IMG/VR virus record: IMGVR_UViG_3300035682_000025
Span: 8,042-72,041 of that record
Length of the DNA: 64,000 bases
DNA from: a virus
Strand: one strand, 5' to 3'
Shown here: piece after piece, positions 1-48,102 of the stretch
Numbering within the stretch: position 1 is the stretch's first letter
How the letters are laid out: each line of letters opens with the position of its first letter
The notes under the pieces: generated by a model
Seen by the model: only the letters and a program-made list of their open reading frames with translations
Told to the model about the DNA's origin: nothing
Databases searched by the model: none
Program-made: the position numbers and the translations under genes

Positions 1-2466
1 AAATACAATACTAATGGAGCTGTTATATGGCAACGCTTAGTAGACAATACTACCTCTTGGACATTCGGCGGGGGATTCTGGTTCGGCTCTGATGGTGGCG
101 GCAGCAATATTGCTGTTCATAATGGTTATGTTGCTATAGCAGGCGCATTTGGTGACCCATTTGACAACCAACAGTCAACCGCAGTAGTGGTACAGATAGA
201 CACTGATGCTACGCCATTCTCAGTAGATAATTGGGACATTAAGACTGCCACATTCAGTGGGTTGTTTGACGGAACTGCTAGCGATATTACAGTAGTCAAT
301 GCTAACAAAGTACCAGGTTCGGCTGTACCGTCTGTTGACGTTTTGACAAGTAATGGAGACTTCACCGATTTCCTAACAATAACACAATATGGACTTGCTG
401 GTGGTAACGAGAGTTTAGTCAACGGTTCGTATTCGGTTAGCCTGGGAAATACTGGTACTTTAACATTACCTGCGGGTGGTACGATATCTGAAGGTTTTGT
501 AACCAGCAATCCTACTATACAAATTACACCAGCAACACCAACAGTGGCCAGCCAGAAGTTGGTGATCAAAGGTGGTAGCAATTATAATTTCACGGACAAC
601 GGCATAACCTTAAGTTATCAAGATAACACTGGGATATTTGGTGATACACTTGATTTTTATGTTAACAACGCAATCACTTATGCTAACCAAACACTCTACT
701 GGTGGATATATCCAGAGGCTGCTGGCCTAACAACCCCAAGTTCTGGCACAGTAGCACTAGATGCAAATGGTGGCGGCGGTCCTATCACTTTTACTGTAAA
801 CAACGACAACTTTGAGTTTACTGTACGCGTATCACCAGAAGAAGATAATTACGACCCTGCGAATGTGGGCGTTGAATCGGGTTTGATTAACCCTGACGAA
901 CCTGCTTTTGATGGTGACCATCACCTACACTTGACTACAGGCGACTTGACAGAGACCAGTATCTTCTTGGGCACTGACAATCACAATGTTCGCACTACAG
1001 CTGATGGTGGAATACAAGTAACTACGGAAACAACAACAGTACAATCGCCATTTACCATAACGATCACGGGTGCTGATGTTAGCGCTGTGAATTTAACCTA
1101 CACTAGAGATCCTGAGCAAGCAACTCCAACTTGGACTTCGCCTGTGGCCAATACAGCCACTGACCCGTATATAGTGTTTGTGGAAGGCGAGTATGGAATC
1201 ATTGCTCCTGACTATGATCCAGTTACACCACTTTATGTCAACACAGGAACACTGACAGTACCATTAGCACAGTGGGCTACTAATCCTCCTTATGGAAGCG
1301 TTGCTCCTCTTGGTGTCTACACATACCCTACTCCAGATGTTCACGCTTGGGCATTTGGTCCAGATGGTACTACCACATTCCCAACATTAACAGTTCCTAT
1401 CAGTGACAATGCTACACCAACTGGCACTGGGCAGATTATAAAATTTGGCGACACTACACAGCAGGCAATCATATTCGGGCCCGAATCAACAGTAAGTACT
1501 ATCAGTGCTGAACGAGTTATCATCCAAGGTGCTCCCGGATATACAGGAACTGATGGCGAAGGTGGTGACGTTTATGTATGGGCAGGACCAGGAGGAAGCC
1601 TTAACGGGTTTGGTGGTGATATTAAAGTTCGCGCTGGTCGAGGCAATGGCACGGGCGCCGGCGGATACTTAAATCTACAAGCAGGCGACAGTGGCACAAG
1701 CGCAGGCGGATACATCAATATTGAAAGTGGAGAAACGAGTACATACGGCGACGGTGGTGACATTACAGTCCAGGCCCGTAGTGGCGGCCGCATAGTATTC
1801 CGTACATACAACTCAGAAGGCAGTAGCAGAGATCTAGAATTAAACAACGCTGGTACAACAACATTCCCGGGTGCTGTAGTCAAAAGTACAGTGGCTAAAA
1901 CTGGTGCGAACCCAGCAGATATTGGTAAAGGTGAGGCCGAAACTATTACGGTATCACCTAGCAACAATACTAATCTTACCGTAGGCACAGTAAACGGCAT
2001 AGCATTTGACGCAGGGTTTACTCTTGATATCACGATTTCGGCCAACGGTGATATCAGTACCGTAGTTACTGCTAGCGATCCCGATCTAAGCGTTGGGGAT
2101 TTTGGTGTTATTGACGGTGGCGGAATCTTAGGCGGAACACAAGGAGTTGATATCACTACCTTTACCGTGGACACATTGACCAACATCATCATATCAACAC
2201 CAATAGACCTAACCAAGTCTGTCAACAAACTAACCAACGGTAATTACACACTGGCTAACGGCGTTGAGGGTCAGATCCTGTACTTGGTTAGACAGAGCGA
2301 ATCAACATACAATTCTATTATGGTAAATGTTGCCAATGCTCGTGTTTACGGTATGTTAGAAACAACCATTGACTACTATCCTTTTGACAATGGTACTTCA
2401 TTAAACATCAGTACACTGATCTTTACAGACGGTGCTTGGCAATCAGATGTCGGGTCGTGGGATTAA
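1..2466 (+). CDS. Tail fiber / adhesin protein, 5-prime partial (gene continues upstream of window)
   Basis: Frame 1 is open from nt 1 into the track ORF 187..2466 with no stop. Gly/Thr/Asn/Ser-rich, beta-rich repetitive sequence of at least 821 aa. It lies immediately upstream of the gp15-gp23 module, as for tail fiber genes in T4-like phages. Confidence 0.65.
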   Translation, partial: KYNTNGAVIWQRLVDNTTSWTFGGGFWFGSDGGGSNIAVHNGYVAIAGAFGDPFDNQQSTAVVVQIDTDATPFSVDNWDIKTATFSGLFDGTASDITVVNANKVPGSAVPSVDVLTSNGDFTDFLTITQYGLAGGNESLVNGSYSVSLGNTGTLTLPAGGTISEGFVTSNPTIQITPATPTVASQKLVIKGGSNYNFTDNGITLSYQDNTGIFGDTLDFYVNNAITYANQTLYWWIYPEAAGLTTPSSGTVALDANGGGGPITFTVNNDNFEFTVRVSPEEDNYDPANVGVESGLINPDEPAFDGDHHLHLTTGDLTETSIFLGTDNHNVRTTADGGIQVTTETTTVQSPFTITITGADVSAVNLTYTRDPEQATPTWTSPVANTATDPYIVFVEGEYGIIAPDYDPVTPLYVNTGTLTVPLAQWATNPPYGSVAPLGVYTYPTPDVHAWAFGPDGTTTFPTLTVPISDNATPTGTGQIIKFGDTTQQAIIFGPESTVSTISAERVIIQGAPGYTGTDGEGGDVYVWAGPGGSLNGFGGDIKVRAGRGNGTGAGGYLNLQAGDSGTSAGGYINIESGETSTYGDGGDITVQARSGGRIVFRTYNSEGSSRDLELNNAGTTTFPGAVVKSTVAKTGANPADIGKGEAETITVSPSNNTNLTVGTVNGIAFDAGFTLDITISANGDISTVVTASDPDLSVGDFGVIDGGGILGGTQGVDITTFTVDTLTNIIISTPIDLTKSVNKLTNGNYTLANGVEGQILYLVRQSESTYNSIMVNVANARVYGMLETTIDYYPFDNGTSLNISTLIFTDGAWQSDVGSWD

Positions 2467-2487
2467 CGGACAAGAGAACAATTTATT

Positions 2488-3243
2488 ATGAAATATCATA
2501 GAGATCAATATCTATTATTTGTATATCAAGTAATTGCCCACATTGGACTATTGCTATTACTATTTTATGGAACATGGTTACAATTACTGATATCTTTTAC
2601 GATTTATTATGTTTTAGGTACGGTAGGTGCAAGTATGACTTATCACAGATTACTCACTCATAGGTCATACACTCCGCCTAGATGGTTTGAACTACTAGGT
2701 AGTGTTGTTGGTGCATTATGTTTGATAGGAAGTCCTGTTAGTTGGGTTGCCATGCACAAACAGCACCATAGATACAGCGATCAGGAGCTGGACCCGCACA
2801 GTCCAGTTCATCACAGTTTTATTCATGTGATGTGCTTTGAAATGTTTAGTGAAGTTAATTTACGTTACGCTGCAAGTATGCTACGAGATCCAATTCAATT
2901 GTTTCTACACAAATACTACTTCTTAATACACGCTTCTATTTTTACAACATTAATAGTCGTCAATCCTTGGAGTGTAGTTTACTTATATCTAGCACCTGTT
3001 GCATTTGTTTGGACATTAGGAAACTGCGTCAATTATTTTAATCATACATCAGGGTATAGAAATCACGAAACAAAAGACAACAGCAGGAACAATCCAATAC
3101 TCGCTATACTATTTGGCGGAGAAGGATGGCATAACAATCACCACGCTAATCCTGCTAAATATTATTATGGCGAGAAGTGGTGGGAATTTGATCTAGCTGG
3201 TTTCCTGATTAAAACATTTTTAGATCGTCGGATAGATGAATAG
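2488..3243 (+). CDS. Membrane fatty-acid desaturase, delta-9 acyl-CoA/acyl-lipid type
   Basis: Three canonical His boxes (HRLLTH, HKQHH, HNNHH) spaced as in stearoyl-CoA/DesC desaturases. Four hydrophobic segments are present. RBS-like gagaac upstream. Confidence 0.75.
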   Translation: MKYHRDQYLLFVYQVIAHIGLLLLLFYGTWLQLLISFTIYYVLGTVGASMTYHRLLTHRSYTPPRWFELLGSVVGALCLIGSPVSWVAMHKQHHRYSDQELDPHSPVHHSFIHVMCFEMFSEVNLRYAASMLRDPIQLFLHKYYFLIHASIFTTLIVVNPWSVVYLYLAPVAFVWTLGNCVNYFNHTSGYRNHETKDNSRNNPILAILFGGEGWHNNHHANPAKYYYGEKWWEFDLAGFLIKTFLDRRIDE

Positions 3244-3269
3244 TTATTTCTAATATATAATAGAGATAG

Positions 3270-3279
3270 CCATAAATAT
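3270..3279 (+). promoter_or_regulatory. T4-type late promoter (CCATAAATAT) upstream of gp15
   Basis: ATAAATA core sits 20 nt upstream of the AGGAG RBS of the gp15 homolog. The same motif precedes gp18, gp19, gp21, gp22, gp23 and all three HEGs. Confidence 0.55.
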
Positions 3280-3297
3280 ATCGAATTAGGAGAATAA

Positions 3298-4098
3298 ATG
3301 CCAATTGTAAATCACTTTTATAATGGAACAACGCGGCGCTACATCGCGTTGTTCGGTTCACTATTCAATAAGATGAGTCTGACTCGTGACGATAACGCAG
3401 GCAATGAAATACAGAGAATGGTCGTTCCTATTTCATACGGACCATTTCAGAAGTTCTTGGCAAAGCTTATTCAAGATCCAGATTTGTCAAAAATTTCAGC
3501 TGTCACTCTTCCAAGAATGTCATTTGAAATTGTGTCAATGTCTTATGATGGCCCAAGAAAGACAAACAGCCGCAATACGATATCAACCAATGACGGCGCT
3601 TCTGTATTCTCTCCTGCTCCATACAATATAGAGTTTAGTCTGTATATCATGACAAAATATGCAGAAGATGGAACTAAGATTATAGAGCAAATTATCCCAT
3701 TCTTCAAGCCAGAATATACATATAGCGCTTATGTTCTTGATAATGCGCCTGCTATGGATATTCCATTGGTGCTAAATAGTGTTAGTATAGAAGATTTATA
3801 CGAAGGTGACTTTGAGACTCGCCGAACTATGATGTGGACATTAACATTCACGATGAAAGCTTGGTATTTTGGCCCAGTTCGGGAAAAGAAGCATATCAAA
3901 TTTGTAGATGTTCGATCATATACACAAATGGAACAGGGTGGCGGTTCTATTATTACGGTTCAGCCTGGATTGACCGTGAATGGCGATCCAACTAATGATA
4001 TAACTGAAACAATACCATTCCAAGAAATTGAGATTGATGATGATTGGGGTGTAATCACAATAGTAGAGGATTTAGAATATGACGGCAATCAGCAATGA
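3298..4098 (+). CDS. gp15: Tail sheath stabilizer / tail completion protein (T4 gp15 homolog)
   Basis: Blocks conserved with T4 gp15: FYNGTTRRYIALFGSLF, TLPRMSFEIVSMSYD, KIIEQIIPFFKPEY. 266 aa. Confidence 0.85.
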   Translation: MPIVNHFYNGTTRRYIALFGSLFNKMSLTRDDNAGNEIQRMVVPISYGPFQKFLAKLIQDPDLSKISAVTLPRMSFEIVSMSYDGPRKTNSRNTISTNDGASVFSPAPYNIEFSLYIMTKYAEDGTKIIEQIIPFFKPEYTYSAYVLDNAPAMDIPLVLNSVSIEDLYEGDFETRRTMMWTLTFTMKAWYFGPVREKKHIKFVDVRSYTQMEQGGGSIITVQPGLTVNGDPTNDITETIPFQEIEIDDDWGVITIVEDLEYDGNQQ

Positions 4099-4561
4099 TC
4101 CGATTGAAATGGCTCTTGGATTGAGACCCGTTGAAGATGCTATTGAATATACCGACTATAGCAATGCGTCAGCTAGCGATACAGCGGGCTCCATATCCGT
4201 CACTACTGCCACCATGCCAGCGTTGATTGCCGCTAATGCTGACGAAGATGACACGGTACAGGACATTGAACTTGCTAGGTCTAATATAAAGAACATCATA
4301 GAGCAGGGAGATGATGCGCTCAAAGAGATGATCAATCTTGCAAAGCAGTCAGAAAGCCCAAGAGCCTATGAAGTTGCCTCAACCCTGATGAAGACGCTTC
4401 TTGATGCAAACAAAGACTTTGTGGAAATGTCTACGAAGAAAAAGTATGCCAAAGAAGAAATACTTCACCCGAAAGACGAAGCAGCTACGACGAATGTTAC
4501 CAATAATAACCTGATTCTGTCAACCGCAGATTTGTTGAAGATGCTAAAGGGTGATGAATGA
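4079..4561 (+). CDS. gp16: Terminase small subunit (T4 gp16-like)
   Basis: 160 aa ORF between gp15 and gp17 homologs, overlapping both (ATGA overlap with TerL), acidic, size matches T4 gp16. RBS GAGGA upstream. Confidence 0.6.
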   Translation: MTAISNDPIEMALGLRPVEDAIEYTDYSNASASDTAGSISVTTATMPALIAANADEDDTVQDIELARSNIKNIIEQGDDALKEMINLAKQSESPRAYEVASTLMKTLLDANKDFVEMSTKKKYAKEEILHPKDEAATTNVTNNNLILSTADLLKMLKGDE

Positions 4562-6156
4562 ATATCGGGTACAACGGCAATTCAAATCTAAAAAAATCGG
4601 ACACACCTGTTGAGTGGACTCAAGAGCTTATTCAAGAATTTGCAAAGTGTGCAGCTGATCCGGTCTACTTTGCAAAGACATATATCAAGATTGTTCATGT
4701 TGACAGAGGGCTTATCCCGTTTGATATGTATGACTATCAAGAAGAAATTGTTGAGAAAATTACAAACAATCGCCGTGTTGCTGTTCTCACTGCTAGACAG
4801 TCTGGCAAGACCACCACAGCAGTTGCTGTCATTCTGCACTACATCCTATTCAATGAGTTCAAGACAGTTGCTATTCTTGCTAACAAGGGTGATGCTGCGA
4901 CCGAAGTTCTTAGCCGAATCAAACTTGCTTATGAGGCACTTCCTGCTTGGCTTCAACAGGGAGTCGAAGAATGGAACAAGACCTATATCACACTTGAAAA
5001 TGGATGCAAGATCTATGCAGGAACAACATCATCTTCTGCTATTCGTGGTAAGGCTGTAAGCTTCCTCTACCTAGACGAAGTTGCGTTCATTGAAGGGTAT
5101 GATGAATTCTTCGCATCTGTCTATCCTACCATATCATCTGGTGAGACTACCAAACTTCTCATGACATCTACCCCTAACGGGATGAATCATTTTTGGAAAA
5201 CATGTAAGGGTGCTGAAGAGGGAACGAATGGATACAAGTTTGTTCGGGTCATGTGGTATGATGTTCCGGGTCGTGGTGAAGCATGGCAACAGGAGACTAT
5301 AGAAGCACTCGACCATGACCAAGAAAAGTTCAATCAAGAATATTGCTGTCAATTTATCGGCAGTTCTGGAACCCTTATCTCTGGCCACAAGCTAAAAGAA
5401 CTTTCTCCATTTAGGCCAATTGCTCAGAGTGATGGACTACTACAATACGAGCGACCAGAAGCCGACAACACCTATGCCATTATCGTTGATGTGTCAAGAG
5501 GAAAGGGATTAGACTATTCCGCATTCTCTGTTATTGACATTACAAAAATGCCATATAAACAGGTATGTACATTTAGAGATAACATGATTGGCGTTGTGGA
5601 TTATTCTTCTGTGGTTCACAATATTGCTAAACTTTACAATGAAGCATATCTACTAATAGAAATAAATGATATTGGCGGCCAAATAGCAGATATATTGTAT
5701 TTAGATTATGGATATGAAAACATGGTATTTACTGAGAATGCTGGGCGAACCGGAAAAAGGGTTTCCGGCGGCTTTGGGAAAAATGTTGACAGGGGTATCC
5801 GTACAACTAAATCAGTGAAGTCGGTTGGGTGTTCCGTATTGAAGATGCTAATTGAACAGAACCAATTGATTGTCACTGACTTCAACACAATACAGGAGCT
5901 ATCTAGGTTTTCTCGTAAGGCGCTGTCATATGAAGCCGAATCTGGCGCTACCGATGACTTGGTAATGGGACTAGTTCTTTTTGCCTGGTTAAGCGATCAG
6001 TCTTACTTTAGAGACTTGACTGATATCAATACAATGGCAGCTCTGAGAGAGAAAACAGAAGAAGAAATCGAGAGCGACTTATTGCCCTTTGGATTCATAA
6101 ACAATGGCATTGACGATGATGATGCACCCGTAGTTCGACATGCAAACTGGCTTTGA
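4558..6156 (+). CDS. gp17: Terminase large subunit (T4 gp17 homolog)
   Basis: Walker A VLTARQSGKTT, Walker B LYLDE, C-terminal nuclease region. 532 aa, T4-like synteny. Confidence 0.9.
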   Translation: MNIGYNGNSNLKKSDTPVEWTQELIQEFAKCAADPVYFAKTYIKIVHVDRGLIPFDMYDYQEEIVEKITNNRRVAVLTARQSGKTTTAVAVILHYILFNEFKTVAILANKGDAATEVLSRIKLAYEALPAWLQQGVEEWNKTYITLENGCKIYAGTTSSSAIRGKAVSFLYLDEVAFIEGYDEFFASVYPTISSGETTKLLMTSTPNGMNHFWKTCKGAEEGTNGYKFVRVMWYDVPGRGEAWQQETIEALDHDQEKFNQEYCCQFIGSSGTLISGHKLKELSPFRPIAQSDGLLQYERPEADNTYAIIVDVSRGKGLDYSAFSVIDITKMPYKQVCTFRDNMIGVVDYSSVVHNIAKLYNEAYLLIEINDIGGQIADILYLDYGYENMVFTENAGRTGKRVSGGFGKNVDRGIRTTKSVKSVGCSVLKMLIEQNQLIVTDFNTIQELSRFSRKALSYEAESGATDDLVMGLVLFAWLSDQSYFRDLTDINTMAALREKTEEEIESDLLPFGFINNGIDDDDAPVVRHANWL

Positions 6157-6188
6157 TTGCCAGAGAAGCTTGACTCAAAGCGAGAAAA

Positions 6189-6198
6189 TCATAAATAA
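6189..6198 (+). promoter_or_regulatory. T4-type late promoter (TCATAAATAA) upstream of gp18
   Basis: ATAAATA core about 50 nt upstream of the sheath gene start. Confidence 0.5.
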
Positions 6199-6249
6199 CT
6201 AAAAGAAGATTGAGCAATCAAAACAACCCGTCAAAAGGAGACAAAACAC

Positions 6250-8130
6250 ATGGTTTTTTCCGTTAGTCCATCCATTACAGTAAGAGAAGTTGACCTTACT
6301 ACTACCGTTCCTGCTATTACAACTCCGCCTGCTGCTATTGCTGGCGTGTTCAATTGGGGGCCAGTCAATGAAAGAGTTTTGATTTCTTCTGAAATTGAGC
6401 TCGCAAATATATTCGGAAAGCCAACAGACGATAATTATGAAACATTTTTCTCGGCTGCTGACTTTCTATCATATTCTAACGCATTGTATGTCACCCGCGT
6501 TGTTTCTGATACCGCAAATACAGCAAGTTCAACTTACTTTGAAGCAAAATATCCAGGTGAGCTTGGTAATTCTTTAGCAGTATCTGTCGTCACTGCTGCC
6601 AATGATGATATAGAAGACCCGATTGCTTTTAGTGCTCCTGCTTGGACCGCAACTAAAGTTGTTGGGACGGTATCGGAGCTTCAGACAAACCCCGCAGACG
6701 AGGTCGCTGGAATGGCGTTTGGAACAACAGTTCTATATGTTACGACCTTAGCAGCAACACTAGATATCAAATCTGATGATGTTATCCACATATCTTCCGA
6801 CATATATGGCGCACAGGAAATTTCTGTATCCAATTTTGACGATAATATCACAAATGCAAACACAACTCCATACATTCATAAGATTACGCTATCTGGAAAA
6901 TATACACTACCAGAAACCGATCCAACTGATTTGACTTTCAGCCGCAGATGGGGATTTTCTAGTGCAGTTGGTGCAGCTCCTTCTGCTGGTCGTATGCATA
7001 TTATAGTGTATGATAACGATGGTAATATTACAGGTACTGCTGGCCAGATCATTGAAAAGTATGAAAATGTTTCGGCCGAACCTACTTCTAAACTAGCAGA
7101 CGGCACGAACAACTACTATAAGGATGTTCTCAGCACAAAATCATCTTATATCGTCGCTTTGGATTCAACCTCAATTGATACTGAAGACCAATTGCGTCAA
7201 GGCGACGTGCTCGCATCTGGCGCGAATGGTGAAAGCGAAAGCGAGATTGTTCTTGGCAAAATTGCGCAGGGATATGACCTATATAAAGAAGCTAACGAGG
7301 TTGATGTTTCATTTGCAATTCAAGGAAGACCATCTCTGAATCTTGCGAATTATCTGATTTCAAATCTGGCTGAATATCGCAAGGATTGTATGGTATTTGT
7401 TTCTCCAACTAAAGCTGATGTTGTTGATGTTGCATCACCACAGACACAGTTGACGAATATTCTTGCTTATCGCGCCGACCTTCAGAATTCTTCCTATTGG
7501 TTCATGGATTCTGGTTACAAGTATCGCTATGACAAGTACAATGATGTATTTCGTTGGGTTCCTCTGAATGGGGATATGGCTGGTCTTGCCTCACTTGTTC
7601 AGCCATGGGAGTCGCCAGCTGGTTATAGAAAGGGTCGCGTTCGTAATGTGATCAAACTCGCATTCAATCCAAATAAGGCTCAGCGCGATCAGCTATATGG
7701 AAAAGATGTCAACCCAGTCATTACACAATCTGGCCAGGGAACAATTCTTTTTGGTGACAAGACTGGATTTGGCACCGCAACCGGAAGCGCGTTTACTCGC
7801 ATCAATGTCCGTCGCTTGTTCATCACGGTGGAAAAGGCAATTGCTACAATATCTGCTCAACTATTGTTTGAATTCAATGACGAATTCACGCAAAATCAGT
7901 TTCGTCAGATTGTTGACCCATTCCTTCGTGACATTCAGGGTCGCCGTGGTATTATTGACTTCCGTGTTGTTTCGGATGCAACCGTGAACACCCCACAGAT
8001 AATCGATATGAACACTTTCCGTGCAAACATCTTTATCAAACCTTCACGTTCCATAAATTACATCGAATTGACTTTTGTGGCAACCAGAACTGGCGTTGAA
8101 TTTGAAGAGATTGTCGGCCAACAGTTCTGA
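6250..8130 (+). CDS. gp18: Tail sheath protein (T4 gp18 homolog)
   Basis: Strong conservation with T4 gp18, e.g. YRYDKYNDVFRWVPLNGDMAGL, SPAGYRKGRVRNVIKLA, AQRDQLYGKDVNPV, TRINVRRLF, INYIELTFVATRTGVEFEE. Confidence 0.9.
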   Translation: MVFSVSPSITVREVDLTTTVPAITTPPAAIAGVFNWGPVNERVLISSEIELANIFGKPTDDNYETFFSAADFLSYSNALYVTRVVSDTANTASSTYFEAKYPGELGNSLAVSVVTAANDDIEDPIAFSAPAWTATKVVGTVSELQTNPADEVAGMAFGTTVLYVTTLAATLDIKSDDVIHISSDIYGAQEISVSNFDDNITNANTTPYIHKITLSGKYTLPETDPTDLTFSRRWGFSSAVGAAPSAGRMHIIVYDNDGNITGTAGQIIEKYENVSAEPTSKLADGTNNYYKDVLSTKSSYIVALDSTSIDTEDQLRQGDVLASGANGESESEIVLGKIAQGYDLYKEANEVDVSFAIQGRPSLNLANYLISNLAEYRKDCMVFVSPTKADVVDVASPQTQLTNILAYRADLQNSSYWFMDSGYKYRYDKYNDVFRWVPLNGDMAGLASLVQPWESPAGYRKGRVRNVIKLAFNPNKAQRDQLYGKDVNPVITQSGQGTILFGDKTGFGTATGSAFTRINVRRLFITVEKAIATISAQLLFEFNDEFTQNQFRQIVDPFLRDIQGRRGIIDFRVVSDATVNTPQIIDMNTFRANIFIKPSRSINYIELTFVATRTGVEFEEIVGQQF

Positions 8131-8141
8131 GAATAAATATA
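8131..8141 (+). promoter_or_regulatory. T4-type late promoter (GAATAAATATA) upstream of gp19
   Basis: ATAAATA core 24 nt upstream of the gp19 start, followed by RBS AGGAG. Confidence 0.5.
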
Positions 8142-8163
8142 GCAAACAACAGGAGATAACGAT

Positions 8164-8700
8164 ATGAGCTTCTCAATAAATCAATTTAAGTCTGAACTAG
8201 TGGGGGGTGGTGCGCGCCCCTCACTCTTCCAAGTTCAAATCACAAACCCAATTCTTGGTGTCGCTGACTTCAAAGTTCCATTCATGGTAAAAGCAGCTGC
8301 GCTTCCTGCTTCTACTCTTGGAACTTATGTCGTGCCATATTTTGGCCGTGACATCAAATACGCTGGAGACAGAACTTTCGAAGATTGGGAAGTGACGATA
8401 ATCAACGATGAAGACTTCTCAATTCGCAATGCTATGGAAGCATGGTCAAACGCAATCAATTCGCACATTTCAAATACGAGAGCACTTCCACAGCAGTATA
8501 AATCTGACGCCATCATTACACAATATGGCAAAGACGGGCAGACTCTTCGCATCTATAACTTCCAAGGCATACATCCACTAACTATAGGTAGTATTGCGAT
8601 GCAATGGGATACAAAAGATACTATTGAAGAATTTACCGTATCATTCCAGTACGATCTTTGGAATATTGTTGGTGGAACCACCGGAAATCCTATAACCTGA
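8164..8700 (+). CDS. gp19: Tail tube protein (T4 gp19 homolog)
   Basis: ARPSLFQV, AAALPAS, AGDRTFEDWEVTIINDED, SDAIITQYGKDG and EEFTVSFQYDLW blocks match T4 gp19. Confidence 0.9.
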   Translation: MSFSINQFKSELVGGGARPSLFQVQITNPILGVADFKVPFMVKAAALPASTLGTYVVPYFGRDIKYAGDRTFEDWEVTIINDEDFSIRNAMEAWSNAINSHISNTRALPQQYKSDAIITQYGKDGQTLRIYNFQGIHPLTIGSIAMQWDTKDTIEEFTVSFQYDLWNIVGGTTGNPIT

Positions 8701-8719
8701 TATAAGAGGTCTATATAAT

Positions 8720-10384
8720 ATGCAACTTTTTGGCTACGAGATCCTCAGAAAACGGGATAAAGAAGAACAACCAAAATCCTTTGCGCCGCCGTTGAATGAC
8801 GACGGCGCAGTAAACGTAGAATCCACCGCTGTTGGTGGAGCCTACGGCTACTTTCTGGACATTGAAGGATCTGCAAAAACAGAATCCGAGTTAGTTACGC
8901 GCTATAGGTCTATGGCACTTCAGCCAGAAATCCAGCAGGCAGTTGATGAAATTGTCAACGAGGCTATCAACATTGATTATAATGAAAGAGCTGCCGAGAT
9001 TGTGTTGGAAGAGACTGAGCTTCCTTCTAAAGTCAAGGAAGTCATAGCTGAAGAATTTGATAATATTCTTCGTCTGCTGGACTTTTCAAATCAAGGCTAT
9101 GAAATATTCCAAAGATTCTTCGTTGATGGTCGTATCAACTATCATGTTATCATAGATGAGAAAAATGTCAACAAAGGAGTTGTCGAACTTCGGTATCTTG
9201 ACCCAAGAAAAATTCGACTCATTCGTGAAAGTGATTCCACCGAAAGAGATAAGAATACTGGTGTTCCTTTCCGCAAGATAAAAAAGGAATACTACATGTA
9301 TTCCGAAACTGGGTTTGGATCAGCTACGAGCCGGGCTGGCGGAGATATGCAATCCATTACTGGATTTCGTATCGCCAAAGACTCTATTGCTCGCGTTACA
9401 TCTGGATTGATGAATGAGACCCAGACGCTTGTGCTATCTCACTTACATAGAGCAATCAAACCACTAAACCAGCTTCGAGTTCTAGAAGATGCGACGATCA
9501 TCTATACTCTAACAAGAGCACCAGAGCGGCGCGTTTTCTATGTTGACGTTGGTAACTTGCCAAAGGCGAAGGCAGAGCAATATCTCGCTGACATGATGGC
9601 TCGTCACAAGAACAAACTAAACTATAACTCGGCAACTGGCGAAGTTGGTGACACTCGTAAATTCATGACTATGACGGAAGATTTTTGGTTCCCTCGCCGT
9701 GAAGGAAACAGATCAACCGAAGTTGATACCCTACCTGGTGGTGGAGCTGCCTTTGGTGACAACGATAACCTTGCTTATTTTCAGAAGAAACTATATAAAT
9801 CACTTGGCGTTCCGGTATCACGACTTGAACCAGAGACTATGTATTCATTTGGTCGTGTTTCTGAAATGACTAGAGATGAACTTCGCTTCTCAAAGTTTAT
9901 TCGCCGTTTGCGTGTCCGATTCTCTATCCTATTTGATACTATTCTAGAAAAGCAGCTTATTCTAAAGGGCATTCTAACGCCAGAAGAATGGCTTGAAATC
10001 AAGGATAAAATACGCTACGATTTTATGAAAGACAATTATTTTGAAGAACTAAAACAGATGGAAATTCTTCGCGAGAAAGTTTCCATGCTTCGTGATATTG
10101 ATGATAATGTTGGTAAATACTTCTCTCGTAACTGGGTGCAAAAACATGTGCTGTTTATGAATGACGAAACCATTGAAGAAATGACAGCCGAAATAGATGC
10201 CGAACGCGCTGCTGGGATCTATCGCGACCCAGATGAGCCACCTCCAGAAGATGCTCTACCACCAGAGGATGATGGTGCTGGCGAGGCACCTCCAGAGGAT
10301 GAGCCAACAGAAGAGCAGAACAATTTATTGATAAATAGCACAAAGTTTGACAAATATAAACAAAGTCGGAGAAAATTCAGATGA
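8720..10384 (+). CDS. gp20: Portal vertex protein (T4 gp20-like)
   Basis: 554 aa ORF at the gp20 position between tail tube and prohead protease. Acidic Pro/Glu-rich C-terminus. Confidence 0.75.
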   Translation: MQLFGYEILRKRDKEEQPKSFAPPLNDDGAVNVESTAVGGAYGYFLDIEGSAKTESELVTRYRSMALQPEIQQAVDEIVNEAINIDYNERAAEIVLEETELPSKVKEVIAEEFDNILRLLDFSNQGYEIFQRFFVDGRINYHVIIDEKNVNKGVVELRYLDPRKIRLIRESDSTERDKNTGVPFRKIKKEYYMYSETGFGSATSRAGGDMQSITGFRIAKDSIARVTSGLMNETQTLVLSHLHRAIKPLNQLRVLEDATIIYTLTRAPERRVFYVDVGNLPKAKAEQYLADMMARHKNKLNYNSATGEVGDTRKFMTMTEDFWFPRREGNRSTEVDTLPGGGAAFGDNDNLAYFQKKLYKSLGVPVSRLEPETMYSFGRVSEMTRDELRFSKFIRRLRVRFSILFDTILEKQLILKGILTPEEWLEIKDKIRYDFMKDNYFEELKQMEILREKVSMLRDIDDNVGKYFSRNWVQKHVLFMNDETIEEMTAEIDAERAAGIYRDPDEPPPEDALPPEDDGAGEAPPEDEPTEEQNNLLINSTKFDKYKQSRRKFR

Positions 10385-11850
10385 AGACATTCAAGCAGTT
10401 GATTGCAGAAGTCGCTCAGCCAAATAACGATGATGAGCTCAATTTCAAAGAAAAGCATACCATCGAAGTTATTGACAACGATAAACCATTTCCTACAGTG
10501 AAGAGAAGCCCACGTCGCAGAGCAGATTACGACGAAGGCGAGGATGAAGTAGTATATGAAGCATCGAAGCTTGACCCTGTTGGAAAGGCTGATGCTGATA
10601 TTGACAATGATGGCGATACAGACAATTCGGATGAGTTTCTACATGCTCGTCGCAAGGCAATCGCTAAAGCAATGAAGAAAGAAGCCCTTGATCTAAGAGA
10701 GAAGGCAGTTTCGCAGGCGCAACAGCAAGCCGCTGGTGTAGCGCTAGCTGTGAAGCGCGGAGACAAGCCAAAGTCTGCTCTCATTGGTGCATCCAAAGAG
10801 ATGTATAAAATGTCTGAGAAAGACTTGGAAGATTTTGCAAAAACGAAGCACAAGGGTCTTCCAGAAAAGATTACAGAAGCTAGTGATAGCAAAATCATCG
10901 CTTCGATCAATGCTGGTGATTCCATTGATGTTACGGTTCAAAAGAACCTGAACCGCAAAGGTGACAACAAAGACGAAATTCTCAAAGTCATTCGCGACTA
11001 CAATTGGAAGAAGCGTATGAAGAAAGAAGAAGTCGGTCAGATCGATGAAGCTGTTGCTGGTCCACAAGACTGCTGGCCCGGTTACAGAAAAGTCGGTACT
11101 AAAATGGGTACAGGCAGAAATACCGGCAATAGAGTGAACGATTGCGAAAAACTTGACGAAGATGCAACACTTGACCAAATCCGTGCTATTCTAACAAAAA
11201 AGAATGACGGAACAAAAGTAGTCAAGGATAAGTCTGGATACTTTCATATCAAAACAGCAAACTCCCACAAGGGACCATTTCATACAATGAAAGATGTTCT
11301 CAAAGATTTGAGTGAAAGCACAAAAAACCTTGGCGAGGCACTTCCAGCACATCTTGTTCGTGGTGATAGCTATGTTGGTATTCCAGATGGAATCGTTGCT
11401 CAGGCAAAAGAAAGAGTTAGACGTCTGAAACCAGCTACATCAAGTGAACATTATGAACAGATGCATAAAGCACTTTCTGACCTTGGTTGGGAGATGACTG
11501 TAGGTGGTAAGTATGTAAGAGAGGGAGCTTTTGTTGCAAAAGCAGCTAGTGCATATGTCGCAGGAAAGAAGAAATTCAAACTTGATGATGAAGAATTTCC
11601 AGTAACGATAAAGCCATCTACTGCTAAGAAGATAGTCAAAGAAAATGCAACCCTCACTGAAACTTTCAAAGTTGGTGCTGTCAAACTGAATGACGGTTCT
11701 TCTATCATCATCAAAGAGCAAGATGCAAAAATATTGAACCAACTGGTCAAAGAACTAAGTGGGCCAAATCGCGAAGCAATGATGACCGCTGCGATGAAGG
11801 ATAAGACTGGTTTCAATGAAATTCTAGGATTTGCGAAGGAGGCATTGTGA
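10381..11850 (+). CDS. Hypothetical head-morphogenesis cluster protein (possible prohead core/internal protein)
   Basis: 489 aa, highly charged (K/E/D), DADIDNDGDTDNSDE acidic cluster. ATGA overlap with portal gene. Occupies the gp67/gp68 position. Confidence 0.6.
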   Translation: MKTFKQLIAEVAQPNNDDELNFKEKHTIEVIDNDKPFPTVKRSPRRRADYDEGEDEVVYEASKLDPVGKADADIDNDGDTDNSDEFLHARRKAIAKAMKKEALDLREKAVSQAQQQAAGVALAVKRGDKPKSALIGASKEMYKMSEKDLEDFAKTKHKGLPEKITEASDSKIIASINAGDSIDVTVQKNLNRKGDNKDEILKVIRDYNWKKRMKKEEVGQIDEAVAGPQDCWPGYRKVGTKMGTGRNTGNRVNDCEKLDEDATLDQIRAILTKKNDGTKVVKDKSGYFHIKTANSHKGPFHTMKDVLKDLSESTKNLGEALPAHLVRGDSYVGIPDGIVAQAKERVRRLKPATSSEHYEQMHKALSDLGWEMTVGGKYVREGAFVAKAASAYVAGKKKFKLDDEEFPVTIKPSTAKKIVKENATLTETFKVGAVKLNDGSSIIIKEQDAKILNQLVKELSGPNREAMMTAAMKDKTGFNEILGFAKEAL

Positions 11851-12098
11851 TGATGATAATCAAGCCACTAGACGAAGAAACTTCCATAACAACAGCTGAT
11901 GATATGAATGGTGCTCGCCTTGTTCGTGTATACGCTGCAGCAGTCTCAAAAGTTACAATAGAAAATCCAGCAGCAAACACTGTCGTTGGCTCATTCACCG
12001 TTCCTGCTGGATCTACTACAATTGTGGAAAAGAATGGGACAGACACTATCGCCGGTTCTACTACGCTTCTTTGTACAGCTGTATCGTACAAGTCATAA
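11847..12098 (+). CDS. Small hypothetical protein in head module (possible prohead core component)
   Basis: 83 aa, ATGA-coupled to upstream gene, located between portal and prohead protease. Confidence 0.5.
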   Translation: MMMIIKPLDEETSITTADDMNGARLVRVYAAAVSKVTIENPAANTVVGSFTVPAGSTTIVEKNGTDTIAGSTTLLCTAVSYKS

Positions 12099-12101
12099 GA
12101 A

Positions 12102-12112
12102 TCATAAATAAA
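12102..12112 (+). promoter_or_regulatory. T4-type late promoter (TCATAAATAAA) upstream of gp21
   Basis: ATAAATA core 25 nt upstream of the gp21 start. Confidence 0.5.
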
Positions 12113-12135
12113 AGAAAACAACCGGAGAAACCATA

Positions 12136-12912
12136 ATGGCATTGCTGATTACAGAAGTATTCAACGAAGATTGCGAAGTGCTTGTTGAAGCAAATGAGAA
12201 CGGCTCTAAGTCGCATTACATCAATGGTATCTTCATGCAGGGTGATATCAAGAACCGTAATGGTCGTGTATATCCTTCTGATATGCTTGAGAAAGAGATG
12301 AAAAGATACAATGAGCAGTTCGTCAAGACGAAAAGAGCTCTTGGCGAACTAGGTCATCCAGATGGCCCACAAATCAATGGTGATCGTGTTTCACATCTAA
12401 TCACTGAAATGAAAAGAGACGGTTCCAATTTCGTTGGTAAGGCAAAGATCCTTTCTACACCAATGGGAAACATTGTCAAGACATTTATTGATGAGGGTGT
12501 AAAAATTGGAGTATCTACTCGTGGTCTTGGTTCTGTCAAGACCACAAAAGAAGGAATTATGGAAGTTCAAAATGACTTCCATCTTGCAACCGTTGATATT
12601 GTTACTGACCCAAGTGGTCCAGACTGCTTTGTTCAGGGAATAATGGAAAACACCCAATACTACTTTGATATTGCTACTGCATCTTGGAGACAATCCGCTG
12701 ATACCATAGTAGCAGAAGCAACTGAGATGGGCGCTAGTTCTATGGATGCTTGCGTATCACCCGATCAGTTCAACGAGGCTATGGATCGTATCCAGATGCT
12801 TGAAGACACTATTCGTTCTATCAAAGAGTCATTTAGCAAACCGTCAAAGAAAATTGATGAAGCTAAAGCTCTACAGATCTTTGAAACGTATATGTCAACA
12901 CTGAAAAACTGA
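12136..12912 (+). CDS. gp21: Prohead core protease (T4 gp21 homolog)
   Basis: INGIFMQGDIKNRNGRVYP, ALGELGHP and GVSTRGLGS match T4 gp21. Confidence 0.85.
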   Translation: MALLITEVFNEDCEVLVEANENGSKSHYINGIFMQGDIKNRNGRVYPSDMLEKEMKRYNEQFVKTKRALGELGHPDGPQINGDRVSHLITEMKRDGSNFVGKAKILSTPMGNIVKTFIDEGVKIGVSTRGLGSVKTTKEGIMEVQNDFHLATVDIVTDPSGPDCFVQGIMENTQYYFDIATASWRQSADTIVAEATEMGASSMDACVSPDQFNEAMDRIQMLEDTIRSIKESFSKPSKKIDEAKALQIFETYMSTLKN

Positions 12913-12915
12913 ATA

Positions 12916-12926
12916 TAATAAATAGT
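12916..12926 (+). promoter_or_regulatory. T4-type late promoter (TAATAAATAG) upstream of gp22
   Basis: ATAAATA core about 35 nt upstream of the scaffold gene. Confidence 0.5.
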
Positions 12927-12960
12927 TATGAAATCGCAAAAAACAAGAAGGAGTTTCTAA

Positions 12961-13923
12961 ATGGCAGAAAACCTAGAAGAAAAGAAGATGTCCGCTGATG
13001 GCCAATCTTCCGTTGAAGATCCAGTGAGCCCTGCTGGTGGTGAACCAAAGCAGAGCCCAACTGGTGCTGATACAAAGAAAAAGGTTGATCCAAACGCTGA
13101 CACAGTTGCTGATGGCGTTACAAAAGTTACCAAGAACGCTGAAAAAGCTGTTGAATTCGCAGAAGAAGTCGAGCTAGAAGAGCATGTCGGTATCTCTGGT
13201 CTATTTGAAGGTCTTGACCTTTCGGAAGACTTCAAAGCAAGAGCAGAGCTCGTATTCGAAGCTGCTGTCAATGAAGCTGCTACCGTCAAAGCAAAATCAA
13301 TTGTTGAATCTGTTGAGGCTGATCTACAGGAACAGTTTAGCAATTCTCTGAATGAGTCTCTAGAAGAAATCGTTGAAAATCTAGATTCATACCTTGACTA
13401 TGTTGTTCAAGAGTGGATGTCAGAAAATGAAGTTGCTATTGAAGCTGGCATCAAAGTAGAGATGGCTGAATCCTTCATGGATGGGCTAAAGGAACTCTTC
13501 TATGAGCATAATGTCAAGATTGATGAAGATACGATTGACGTGGTTGCTGAACTCGAAGAAGAAGTTGCAGCTGCTAAAGAAGCTGCAAATCGCGCTATCA
13601 TCGAAAGCATCGGCATCAACGAAGAACTACAAACTCTTCGTGCTGAGCGCGAATTTTCTAACATGACTGAAGGACTTTCACAGTCTCAAGTTGAACGTTT
13701 TCGTGTTCTATCAGAGAAACTGAATAGTTCAGATATCGCTTCCTACAAGCAAGACCTTGCTACTATCAAGGAATCTTTCTTCAAGAAAACAAACAGTGCG
13801 ACAGCCGTCAAGGATCTTGATGAAGCTGCTGGTGAGTTTATCATTGAAGAAGTTATTCCAGTCAAGAAATCCGGCGATGCTTCCATTAATGCTTATGCTG
13901 AATTTCTGAATAACATGAAATAA
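12961..13923 (+). CDS. gp22: Prohead scaffold protein (T4 gp22-like)
   Basis: 320 aa, very acidic and alpha-helical, at the gp22 position between protease and major capsid protein. Confidence 0.7.
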   Translation: MAENLEEKKMSADGQSSVEDPVSPAGGEPKQSPTGADTKKKVDPNADTVADGVTKVTKNAEKAVEFAEEVELEEHVGISGLFEGLDLSEDFKARAELVFEAAVNEAATVKAKSIVESVEADLQEQFSNSLNESLEEIVENLDSYLDYVVQEWMSENEVAIEAGIKVEMAESFMDGLKELFYEHNVKIDEDTIDVVAELEEEVAAAKEAANRAIIESIGINEELQTLRAEREFSNMTEGLSQSQVERFRVLSEKLNSSDIASYKQDLATIKESFFKKTNSATAVKDLDEAAGEFIIEEVIPVKKSGDASINAYAEFLNNMK

Positions 13924-13931
13924 TAAATAAC
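13921..13931 (+). promoter_or_regulatory. T4-type late promoter (TAATAAATAA) upstream of gp23
   Basis: ATAAATA core 38 nt upstream of the major capsid protein start, RBS AAGGAGA. Confidence 0.55.
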
Positions 13932-13966
13932 TAAGTAAACACAAACCATCAAGGAGAGACAAAGAA

Positions 13967-15286
13967 ATGAGTCAAAACAATCGTTTCCTAGTAGAAAAGT
14001 GGAAGCCAGTTCTGGACCACGAAAAATTCGGCCGTATCGGTGATGATTATCGCCGTGGCGTTACTGCAACAATTCTAGAGAACACACAGAACGCTCTGCG
14101 CGAAGACCGCACCGCAGTTTCTATGACGTCTCTCTTGAGCGAAACAACAAACAACACCTACGGCGCTGGCGCTGGTGCTGCTGGATTTAGTTCTGGTGCA
14201 GAGGCTAGCGGTCCAACCGCTGGTTATGACCCAATCCTAATCAGCTTGGTTCGTCGTTCCATGCCTAACCTGATTGCTTACGATATCGCTGGTGTTCAGC
14301 CGATGACTGGTCCAACCGGACTTATCTTCGCGATGCGCTCCAAGTATACTGCAATGGCTGGTAACACTTCAACAGAAGCTTTCTACGGCGAAGCAAACAC
14401 CGCGTTCTCTGGAACCGGAACACCAAACTCCGCTGGTCTTCCAACCAACGCAAACTTCGGTACTGCTATGAGAACTGAAGTAGGCGAAACTCTTGGTACT
14501 GGCGGCAACCCATTCGGCGAAATGGCTTTCTCAATCGAAAAAGTCGCTGTCGAAGCAAAGACCCGCGCATTGAAAGCAGAATACACCACTGAACTTGCAC
14601 AAGACCTCAAGGCAGTTCATGGTCTGGACGCTGAGACAGAACTTGCAAACATCCTTTCTTCTGAAATCCTTGTTGAAATCAACAGAGAAGTTGTTCGTAC
14701 AATCTATAGTTCTGCTGTTCAGGGTTCTCAGGGAACCGCTGTAAACGGTACATTCGATCTTGACGTTGACGCAAATGGCCGTTGGTCAGTTGAGAAGTTC
14801 AAGGGTCTGATGTTCCAGATTGAGAAAGAAGCTAACGCAATTGCTAAGGCAACTCGTCGCGGCAAGGGTAACATCGTTATCTGTTCTTCTGATGTTGCTT
14901 CTGCACTTCAGATGGCTGGTATCCTTGATTACACTCCTGCTCTAAACTCTAACAATCTACAGGTAGATGATACCGGCAATACTTTCGCTGGTGTTCTGAA
15001 CGGCCGCTTCCGCGTATACATCGACCCATACGCTGGTTCAAACTACCTGGTTGTTGGTTACAAGGGCTCATCCGCGTTTGACGCTGGTATTTTCTACTGC
15101 CCATACGTTCCACTACAGATGGTTCGTGCTATCGGCGAAGATACCTTCCAGCCAAAAATTGGCTTCAAGACCCGCTACGGCATGGTCGCGAACCCATTCG
15201 CTGGTGGCGCTACTCAAGGTATGGGTGCTATCTCTGCTGCATCAAACGTGTACTACAGAAAAGTTATTGTATCAAATCTGTTCTGA
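13967..15286 (+). CDS. gp23: Major capsid protein (T4 gp23 homolog)
   Basis: AYDIAGVQPMTGPTGLIFAM and other blocks characteristic of the T4 gp23 family. 439 aa. Confidence 0.9.
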   Translation: MSQNNRFLVEKWKPVLDHEKFGRIGDDYRRGVTATILENTQNALREDRTAVSMTSLLSETTNNTYGAGAGAAGFSSGAEASGPTAGYDPILISLVRRSMPNLIAYDIAGVQPMTGPTGLIFAMRSKYTAMAGNTSTEAFYGEANTAFSGTGTPNSAGLPTNANFGTAMRTEVGETLGTGGNPFGEMAFSIEKVAVEAKTRALKAEYTTELAQDLKAVHGLDAETELANILSSEILVEINREVVRTIYSSAVQGSQGTAVNGTFDLDVDANGRWSVEKFKGLMFQIEKEANAIAKATRRGKGNIVICSSDVASALQMAGILDYTPALNSNNLQVDDTGNTFAGVLNGRFRVYIDPYAGSNYLVVGYKGSSAFDAGIFYCPYVPLQMVRAIGEDTFQPKIGFKTRYGMVANPFAGGATQGMGAISAASNVYYRKVIVSNLF

Positions 15287-15321
15287 TAAAAGAACTCGGA
15301 AACAACCGAGTCAAACTAAAG

Positions 15322-15349
15322 GGGCGGAACTTCGGTTCCGCCTTTTTTT
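15322..15349 (+). terminator. Rho-independent terminator after the major capsid gene
   Basis: GGCGGAAC-TTCG-GTTCCGCC stem-loop followed by T7 run. Confidence 0.8.
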
Positions 15350-15404
15350 ATTGCTAAGTCAAAAACTATTTTCAGTTTCTTCTTATCGTAAGCAACTTAC
15401 TCTA

Positions 15405-15480
15405 ATAAATAGAAGTATAGGTCGCGGAGGTCGAGTCCCACCTATTCTAGAACTATCATTTTTTGGAAGGAGTCCCAGCA
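15405..15480 (+). promoter_or_regulatory. HEG-associated late promoter plus conserved leader (copy A)
   Basis: ATAAATAGAAGT...TCGCGG...CTCTAGAACT...AAGGAG, conserved with copies upstream of the HNH (29687-29765) and second GIY-YIG (62183-62267) genes. Confidence 0.6.
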
Positions 15481-36572: not shown

Positions 36573-36828
36573 TACATGTCAACCTTGTCAATTGAAAATC
36601 TGGAGTTTGGCCAGTATAGACCATCATGATTGTTTGAACTTTGTCTAAATCATACAATCGTTCTTCCAAAAAGTCAACCACATCAAATACGCTATCTGCA
36701 TCAACCTCATGATAAGAAAACATATAATCAAGAGCTTCCCGCATAGTGCATTTTTCATTCACCATGATGTCTACGACTTCTTTTTCAAAGCTCATGGTGT
36801 AATCAGAAAGGTGAATCACCGAAGCCAC
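36535..36828 (-). CDS. Hypothetical protein
   Basis: 97 aa (start may be the internal ATG at 36795). Confidence 0.35.
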   Translation of the reverse strand: MASVIHLSDYTMSFEKEVVDIMVNEKCTMREALDYMFSYHEVDADSVFDVVDFLEERLYDLDKVQTIMMVYTGQTPDFQLTRLTCNGESKTKRSDKG

Positions 36829-48020: not shown

Positions 48021-48102
48021 AACTTTCTTCCTTTCATAATTTTTATATTCGTTCATATCGTTTTGATAATCGAGACTATTTCTATAGTTGGTTCGATCTG
48101 GT

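Follow-up and report, generated by a model that had tools for sequence, protein, structure and literature searches.

Why does a phage carry a gene for a membrane fatty-acid desaturase in the midst of its virion genes, and what could the encoded enzyme do to the infected cell? The question is raised by a 251-amino-acid (aa) open reading frame (ORF) within 64,000 nt of viral DNA, positions 8,042 to 72,041 of the IMG/VR record IMGVR_UViG_3300035682_000025 (hereinafter the window), which an earlier reading of the sequence, hereinafter the original prediction, described as a delta-9-type desaturase embedded in the late structural module. The analysis described here characterizes this ORF as a genuine phage gene that is subject to strong purifying selection and encodes a protein of the desaturase family and fold; the encoded enzyme would probably act on the membrane lipids of the host late in infection. 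The coordinates of the gene, its motifs and its neighbors are collected in Table 1.

Family assignment, metal ligands and predicted structure of the desaturase

The product of the ORF matches the Pfam family FA_desaturase (PF00487) over aa 29-227 with a score (72.9 bits, E = 4.7e-20) well above the gathering threshold of 29.7 bits, a match far beyond chance; the hidden Markov model search that had been suggested as a check thus agreed with the original prediction. Among the PHROG families, the match is to phrog_35201, a family without an assigned function (E = 1e-17). The three histidine boxes are present exactly as described, in an order that fits the superfamily pattern HX3-4H, HX2-3HH, HX2-3HH, with a spacing of 32 residues from H58 to H90 and of 121 residues from H94 to H215. 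In an alignment of 44 homologs, H53, H58, H90, H93, H94, N182, H186, H215, H218 and H219 are all invariant, so that no conserved histidine is missing. Aligned with stearoyl-CoA desaturase SCD1, this set corresponds to what we take to be the nine histidines and one asparagine that hold the di-metal center in the SCD1 structures. The features of the delta-9-type group are found as well, namely a first box of the form HXXXXH (H53-X4-H58), a third box that starts with His rather than Gln, and an N-X3-H motif after the fourth transmembrane (TM) helix.

When all chains in the PDB were searched with phmmer, SCD1 alone was retrieved, from mouse and human (E = 2e-13 and 2e-12), and a profile built from the 44 homologs again retrieved SCD1 alone (E = 5e-29). 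The AlphaFold2 model of the protein, built with an alignment, is of high predicted quality (predicted local distance difference test, pLDDT, 95.9; predicted template modeling score, pTM, 0.91), and a Foldseek comparison of this model with the PDB yielded significant matches to SCD1 structures only (4zyo, 4ymk and 6wf2; TM-scores 0.76-0.79, E ~1e-9). Among predicted viral structures, the top match is annotated 'OLE1 fatty-acid desaturase [uncultured Caudovirales phage]'. According to the hydropathy profile, hydrophobic hairpins lie at aa ~9-50 and ~145-183, with a shorter hydrophobic segment located between the first and second His boxes; basic residues flank the hairpins on the His-box side. 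The two predicted hairpins fit a four-helix integral-membrane topology with the His boxes on one face, the orientation being read from the charge distribution only.

Given the agreement between the Pfam match, the profile search against the PDB, the fold and the conservation of the ligands, the delta-9-type assignment holds at the level of the group: the protein is a membrane di-iron desaturase of the SCD/DesC delta-9-type group, with family and fold established and the chemistry predicted from homology. At 251 aa, it consists of the desaturase core only, with no fused electron-donor domain.

Position of the gene in the virion module

The desaturase gene is followed by the genes for gp15, TerS, TerL, sheath, tube and portal, and on account of these genes the window phage can be classified as a T4-like myovirus. 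The upstream ORF, which runs off the window, supplies the last 759 aa of a protein that contig L001 encodes in full (1535 aa). This contig carries an identical desaturase, matches the window at all but 1 of 13,243 nt and reaches 7.5 kb further upstream, with the gene order 1088-aa glycosyl/methyltransferase, gp13, gp14, 1535-aa protein, desaturase, gp15. The same arrangement, amid gp13, gp14, gp15, TerS, TerL, sheath, tube and portal, recurs in contigs that stem from at least two sequencing runs, SRR27420240 and SRR11646432 being runs in which the phage is present. Given that gp13, gp14 and gp15 are contiguous in phage phiM12, where the gp14-gp15 gap is 3 nt, the gene for the 1535-aa protein and the desaturase gene constitute a ~5.4-kb insertion in a conserved core block.

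The original prediction had placed the desaturase between a tail fiber gene and gp15. The second of these neighbors is borne out by strong family matches (Table 1), whereas 'tail fiber' is only a plausible description of the first. Searches of Pfam, PHROG and the PDB gave no match for the 1535-aa protein, which contains both Gly-rich and beta-propeller-like ('DG..W.K') repeats. A homolog of 1197 aa with 47-54% identity is encoded on IMG/VR contig L125 (4344-7937), between a gp9-like connector and tail-fiber genes; the gene immediately after it encodes a desaturase that shares 47% identity with that of the window. The beta-propeller-like repeats of the 1535-aa protein are shared with a giant protein of L193 (30% identity over the repeats), and in the L192/L193 fiber cluster a desaturase gene lies a few genes downstream of this giant repeat protein. 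We accordingly refer to the 1535-aa protein as fiber-like, a putative tail fiber.

The placement of an auxiliary gene inside the virion cluster, which had been singled out as notable, is real but less unusual than claimed: the structural region of aquatic T4-like phages has been described as including a 'host recognition cluster', which is hypervariable and in which auxiliary genes are found (PMC7029224), and relatives of the desaturase gene adjoin tail-tube, tail-fiber or endolysin genes in other viral contigs.

On contig L001, the 1088-aa multidomain protein (455-3721; GT1, GT2 and Methyltransf_21 domains) is encoded directly upstream of gp13 and recalls the lipopolysaccharide (LPS)-related genes of the published cluster.

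Transcription and translation signals

The motif ATAAATA occurs eight times on the plus strand of nt 1-16302 (at 3272, 6191, 8133, 10331, 12104, 12918, 13923 and 15405). Seven of these occurrences fall into the intergenic 4.8% of this region, 19-69 nt before start codons (binomial P ~5e-9), where they precede the genes for gp15, sheath, tube, prohead protease, scaffold and major capsid protein and the gene next to it; the eighth is located 43 nt upstream of the gene at 10381. Thus, ATAAATA, often in the form CATAAATA and present at this distance ahead of almost all late structural gene starts, looks like the late promoter of this phage lineage. For TATAAATA, the exact T4 late promoter, no enrichment was seen (2 occurrences observed versus 2.0 expected).

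On contig L001, ATAAATA is found ahead of gp13 (at 3718) and is absent ahead of gp14, the gene for the 1535-aa protein and the desaturase gene. The latter is the only gene of the late module for which a Shine-Dalgarno site is not recognizable, its neighbors carrying AGGAG or AAGGAG, and the only one with neither this site nor ATAAATA. Since the 21-nt spacer that separates it from the fiber-like gene lacks both signals and gp15, like other late genes, has both, the desaturase gene appears to be the last gene of a late transcript, and gp13, gp14, the fiber-like gene and the desaturase gene are probably transcribed as a single unit. The original prediction, under which the gene lacks a late promoter of its own and is co-transcribed with the fiber gene, is supported by these observations. 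The absence of a Shine-Dalgarno site suggests that translation of the desaturase is low or coupled to that of the preceding gene. A scan for terminators detected no hairpin beside either end of the desaturase gene, the nearest plus-strand site being located inside the fiber-like gene (2079-2098), and the scan performed at background level.

Selection and phylogeny

The closest homolog, encoded on contig L173, shares 83% amino acid identity with the window protein and is also followed by a gp15 homolog. The ratio of nonsynonymous to synonymous substitution rates (dN/dS) between these two genes is 0.08 at dS ~1.1, and dN/dS is 0.07 in the comparison with a 74%-identical homolog, for which dS is saturated; the desaturase gene is under strong purifying selection. 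A large protein database contains more than 7,800 relatives, mostly of 244-255 aa; two long contigs from this database that bear relatives (518 kb and 328 kb) turned out to be IMG/VR entries themselves. An alignment-based scan of IMG/VR yielded 520 matches with identity of up to 51%. Single-protein pattern scans of the IMG/VR and GTDB genomes gave no match; the relatives in these two sets were found by alignment-based scans. Among the matches listed (one genome per GTDB species), the best bacterial homologs, from Acidobacteriota, Planctomycetota and Cyanobacteria, are 32-38% identical to the window protein.

For tree and locus comparisons, 82 viral and 80 bacterial sequences were employed. The median ORF length is 249 aa for the viral and 308 aa for the bacterial sequences. 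In a neighbor-joining tree, the window protein, three close metagenomic relatives and 77 of the 82 viral sequences form a clade that includes none of the 80 bacterial sequences, and the split between the viral and bacterial sequences was recovered in 100 of 100 neighbor-joining bootstrap replicates of a subsample. In this phylogenetic comparison with the bacterial homologs sampled, the compact (~249 aa) desaturase clade is apparently restricted to viruses. With T4 core genes flanking it on independent contigs, a dN/dS of 0.08 and 520 relatives in IMG/VR, the gene is a phage auxiliary metabolic gene; that part of the original prediction also agrees with published phage desaturases (PMC5776448, PMC7300359).

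A scan of JGI metagenomes retrieved only relatives of 44-49% identity in a marine TonB-receptor/SufBD context, none with the fiber/gp15 synteny. An INPHARED match, 'Acinetobacter phage MD-2021a' (CAKLQH020000002.1 / CAKLQF020000003.1), was discarded: with trpC, btuB, ugpQ, baeSR and a 390-aa bacterial desaturase, it is a bacterial chromosome.

Proposed function and points that weigh against it

Taken together, these observations are best accommodated by a compact integral-membrane, di-iron, O2-dependent acyl desaturase of the SCD1/Ole1/DesC ('first', delta-9-type) group. The gene would be transcribed late, as the last gene of the gp13-gp14-fiber-like-desaturase unit, and, having no Shine-Dalgarno site of its own, would be translated at a low level. 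In the cytoplasmic membrane of the host, the protein would form two helical hairpins that leave every His ligand facing the cytoplasm, and it would receive electrons from a ferredoxin- or flavodoxin-type donor of the host (or from an unseen one of the phage). In saturated acyl chains, for which membrane glycerolipids are the most likely carriers, it would create the first cis double bond, with C9 as the most likely position, and unsaturation of the envelope would thereby rise during late infection; the benefit to the phage might lie in membrane fluidity, cold adaptation or lysis. To this reading, a late-expressed, O2- and donor-dependent desaturase of the cytoplasmic membrane that acts on lipid-bound host acyl chains, we assign a probability of about two in three. 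If the activity is as predicted, phages of aquatic heterotrophs would routinely alter the unsaturation of host membranes late in infection, which would bear on when cells lyse, on adaptation to cold and on which lipids the lysates bring into the dissolved organic pool.

Several observations weigh against this reading. The activity, substrate and regiospecificity of the whole clade are predicted from homology, and identity is low, 21-23% to SCD1 (in the Foldseek alignments) and 32-38% to the nearest bacterial homologs among the matches listed. The SCD/ADS group includes other regiospecificities, in insect and plant members. The sole NCBIfam model touched, the DesA-family equivalog NF049918, is matched partially and fails its threshold (72.5 bits against a cut-off of 400). 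Motif scans of the 64-kb window, with Pfam searches of the Cys-motif candidates, detected no ferredoxin, flavodoxin, rubredoxin or cytochrome b5, a glutaredoxin being the sole redox protein found. The timing of expression is read only from motif positions, and a sigma-70-like site is present at 2330-2357, at chance frequency in a scan that itself performed at background level. Finally, the gene neighborhoods of many relatives, in which the desaturase is paired with an Asp_Arg_Hydrox oxygenase or placed in envelope-modification islands, hint that the role of the enzyme may go beyond bulk fluidity.

Elsewhere in the window, an SPFH/Band_7 membrane-scaffold protein (PF01145, E = 1e-30) is encoded at 47157-48119 on the minus strand and is a second gene that possibly acts on host membrane organization.

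Viral gene neighborhoods and alternative explanations

A gene for an Asp_Arg_Hydrox oxygenase (PF05118) lies within 300 bp of the desaturase gene in 31 of the 82 viral loci and in none of the 80 bacterial loci (the pairs come from IMG/VR loci L093-L172, L003 and L176). In 28 of these 31 loci, it is the next gene downstream, is encoded on the same strand and in most cases overlaps the desaturase gene by 4 nt. Furthermore, 25 of the viral loci contain two or three desaturase copies within 4 kb (for example, L003 at 6471-7205 and 8655-9383; three copies in L152), and the other recurrent partners include radical-SAM proteins (16 loci), TauD and hexapeptide transferases (15 each), a SleB-like endolysin (10) and the tail-tube gene (9). 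In Pelagibacter phage Mosig (L176, 59678-60954), the Asp_Arg_Hydrox-desaturase pair resides in an island beside tail-fiber genes that also encodes an ArnB-like aminotransferase, an acetyltransferase and an FMN reductase. The window itself contains a single desaturase copy and no TauD, hexapeptide transferase or radical SAM protein, a phosphoesterase being the only recurrent neighbor present.

These neighborhoods speak for the strongest alternative, namely that the same fold performs another job: the enzyme would modify a specific envelope lipid (for example, acyl chains of lipid A, an ornithine lipid or a lipoprotein), or would catalyze hydroxylation or a reaction of another regiochemistry. 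It would belong to the host-recognition and envelope-remodeling genes of the phage and serve superinfection exclusion, receptor masking or lysis priming, and not the tuning of bulk membrane fluidity. The desaturase genes of the window, L125 and L192/L193 are all located in fiber clusters, and the 'host recognition cluster' of aquatic myophages mixes fibers with LPS-modifying genes (PMC7029224); a weak FA_hydroxylase match (E = 0.009, below the Pfam cut-off) points in the same direction. On the other hand, the 64-kb window contains no Asp_Arg_Hydrox partner. The partner protein has no NCBIfam assignment, which leaves a link to LpxO/OlsC unsupported, and adjacency in hypervariable islands may reflect common insertion hot-spots. 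Given, in addition, that the ligand motifs and the sole structural match are those of a desaturase, we regard this alternative as unlikely, while conceding it a real chance.

A more elaborate version, which we put forward as speculation with rather poor odds, is that the compact clade is a virus-specific lineage for targeted remodeling of the host envelope and part of the host-recognition gene set. Together with an oxygenase of the Asp/Asn-beta-hydroxylase family, to which they are translationally coupled in about a third of the viral loci, such desaturases, often present in several copies, might desaturate or hydroxylate the acyl chains of a specific lipid of the outer or inner membrane and so block superinfection or prepare lysis. 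Should this be the case, co-transcription with the giant fiber-like protein would create a functional link between the adsorption apparatus and lipid modification. The combination of a virus-specific compact clade with operon-like coupling to an Asp/Asn hydroxylase, the latter being found outside the window, is the most interesting lead that emerges from the present analysis.

Whether the gene is useful to the phage at all has to be considered as well. It could be a passenger (moron) that was acquired along with the fiber-like gene and plays no part in infection, or that is already decaying: the insertion breaks the gp14-gp15 junction that is contiguous in phiM12, the desaturase gene has the lowest GC content (36.4%) and the lowest GC at third codon positions (GC3, 0.29) of the eight module genes compared, and it lacks its own promoter and ribosome-binding site. 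This scenario is very improbable in view of the purifying selection described above (dN/dS 0.08 at dS ~1.1), the intact and invariant metal ligands, the retention of the position upstream of gp15 in the phage with the 83%-identical desaturase, and the full-length genes in hundreds of viral relatives.

Even less credit is due to a role in virion or fiber assembly, in which the protein, anchored in the membrane, would act as a chaperone or scaffold of the giant protein encoded upstream. Assembly factors are often encoded immediately after fiber genes, and the pair of fiber-like and desaturase genes is kept in L125 despite different flanking genes. However, this pair is present in only 1 of 80 IMG/VR loci, the upstream protein has a different C-terminus in the closest relatives (L173 and L174), most relatives reside in non-structural islands, and the fully conserved catalytic site would be needless for a scaffold.

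The weakest alternative, a host gene mis-assembled onto phage DNA, has nothing but the lower GC content in its favor and is practically dismissed by the identical arrangement on independent contigs from different runs (1 mismatch in 13.2 kb against the window), the tight intergenic distances with the late-promoter-like motif of gp15 directly after the desaturase stop codon, and the low identity of the bacterial homologs (at most 38% among the matches listed).

Phage lineage and other features of the window

A megablast search of INPHARED with nt 1-8000 of the window gave no match; accordingly, the phage has no close cultured relative, and it belongs to an aquatic lineage that is uncultured. 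Its TerL is closest (56-57% identity) to those of the Sinorhizobium phages phiN3/phiM12 and Pseudoalteromonas phage XG4, and is 47-50% identical to those of Methylophilales phage Melnitz and cyanophages. Given the GC content of 43% and a TerL nearest to those of phiM12-like rhizobiophages and not of pelagiphages, this is probably not a SAR11 phage. A tRNA scan found no tRNA gene that would hint at the host.

Several other ORFs of the window deserve mention. A 458-aa ORF (19394-20770, minus strand), without a Pfam match, contains, by eye, approximately eight tandem repeats of ~48 aa (W..E.C..EA.KY...F.....AY.AA..NGWLDE.C.HM). Three free-standing ORFs are located between conserved genes on the plus strand: that at 62268-63233 has a DUF7487 match and tandem 'RYGV..P.QS.EI' repeats, and those at 15481-16302 and 29766-30710 (the latter without a Pfam match) resemble insertions of the homing-endonuclease type by eye only. 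An RNA ligase with a PHA02142 OB-fold domain is encoded at 38821-39963 on the minus strand.

Table 1. The desaturase gene, its motifs and signals, and neighboring or related features of the window
Feature	Position (nt)	Strand	Comments
Desaturase ORF, 251 aa, ATG start	2488..3243, stop included	+	PF00487; SCD1 fold; dN/dS 0.08
Predicted TM1-TM2 hairpin, aa 5-57	2500..2658	+	Kyte-Doolittle maxima at ~aa 15-40; AlphaFold2 helices 5-27 and 30-57; aligns with SCD1 TM1/TM2
His box 1, HRLLTH, aa 53-58	2644..2661	+	Aligns with SCD1 HRLWSH; H53, R54 and H58 invariant
His box 2, HKQHH, aa 90-94	2755..2769	+	Aligns with SCD1 HRAHH...DPH
Conserved DPH motif, aa 102-104	2791-2799	+	After box 2; invariant in the 44 homologs; same motif in SCD1
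Predicted TM3-TM4 hairpin, aa 144-184	2917..3039	+	Hydropathy maxima at ~aa 155-175; AlphaFold2 helices 144-158 and 160-184
NYFNH motif (N182...H186), additional SCD1-type metal-ligand motif	3031..3045	+	Aligns with SCD1 NSAAH
His box 3, HNNHH, aa 215-219	3130..3144	+	Inside conserved GEGWHNNHH; aligns with SCD1 GEGFHNYHH
Fiber-like gene, 3' part	1..2466	+	5' end outside the window; full gene (1535 aa) at L001 5372-9979
21-nt spacer between fiber-like and desaturase genes	2467..2487	+	No late-promoter-like motif, no Shine-Dalgarno site
Late-promoter-like motif CATAAATA	3271..3278	+	19 nt upstream of gp15 start; putative beginning of the next late transcription unit
gp15, tail sheath stabilizer, downstream neighbor	3298..4098	+	PF16724, E = 2.7e-68; phrog_227, E = 1e-74
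Glutaredoxin	36803-37069	-	Only redox protein recognized in the window

Comparison with known desaturases

The mammalian SCD1 structures (4YMK, 4ZYO and 6WF2) share with the window protein the order of the four TM helices, the three His boxes and the N...H motif. The phage protein is, however, ~70-90 residues shorter, as it has no N-terminal extension and only part of the cytosolic cap, and, if its activity holds, would lend itself well to use as a minimal model of the SCD1 fold. Acyl-CoA and cytochrome b5 serve SCD1 as substrate and electron donor; given that a bacterial host has neither in the same form, the substrate carrier and the electron donor of the phage enzyme probably differ from those of SCD1. 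The nearest cellular homologs among the matches listed, the bacterial and cyanobacterial DesC-like proteins (COG1398), contain the same motifs but are only 32-38% identical, longer (median 308 aa), placed in a separate clade and devoid of an Asp_Arg_Hydrox neighbor.

Among viral proteins, the best characterized are the DesC-like vFAD-I and vFAD-II of cyanomyophages, which complement yeast ole1 and have delta-9 activity on C16, with a phage ferredoxin proposed as the donor (Roitman et al., 2018; PMC5776448). Like the window protein, they are His-box membrane desaturases of the delta-9 (DesC/SCD) type without a fused donor, encoded as auxiliary genes by T4-like aquatic myophages. They differ in being the sister group of picocyanobacterial DesC (having been selected at <70% identity to picocyanobacteria) and in their location in cyanomyophage genomes with photosynthesis genes. 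By contrast, the window protein is 33-37% identical to the best cyanobacterial homologs among the matches listed, belongs to a phage whose TerL is nearest to those of phiM12/phiN3, and has a predicted activity; cyanophage records contain no match to it at E<=1e-5.

Arctic cryopeg brine and sea ice have yielded SCD1-like vFADs with three His boxes, several per virus; human SCD1 (4ZYO) served as the template for their models, and a delta-9 specificity was deduced for them (Zhong et al., 2020; PMC7300359). Their multiple copies per virus resemble the situation in 25 of the 82 viral loci analyzed here, whereas their habitat and hosts (Marinobacter, Colwellia and others) differ; the likeness to the window protein is one of description.

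A stearoyl-CoA desaturase has also been reported in freshwater SAR11 'fonsimyophages' (Zaragoza-Solas et al., PMC7029224), and a pelagiphage scaffold with a desaturase has been mentioned (PMC11480375). Mosig and the fonsimyophages are similar to the window phage in that T4-like phages of aquatic heterotrophs, isolated or assembled, carry the desaturase in or near a hypervariable tail-fiber region. The Mosig protein, however, has only 216 aa, is 28% identical to the window protein, falls outside the main viral clade and is paired with Asp_Arg_Hydrox.

Thus, phage desaturases as a class of genes and the presence of auxiliary genes among virion genes are already known, and what is specific to the present case is the phiM12-related T4-like lineage, the gp14-gp15 insertion point, the giant orphan fiber-like partner and the compact, apparently virus-restricted clade. 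Most of the close relatives in public databases come from viruses, are of compact size and differ from the bacterial homologs sampled, and the gene described here adds to the known phage desaturases a case from a T4-like lineage outside the cyanophages that is well resolved with respect to operon anatomy, insertion site in the core neck/tail region and selection.

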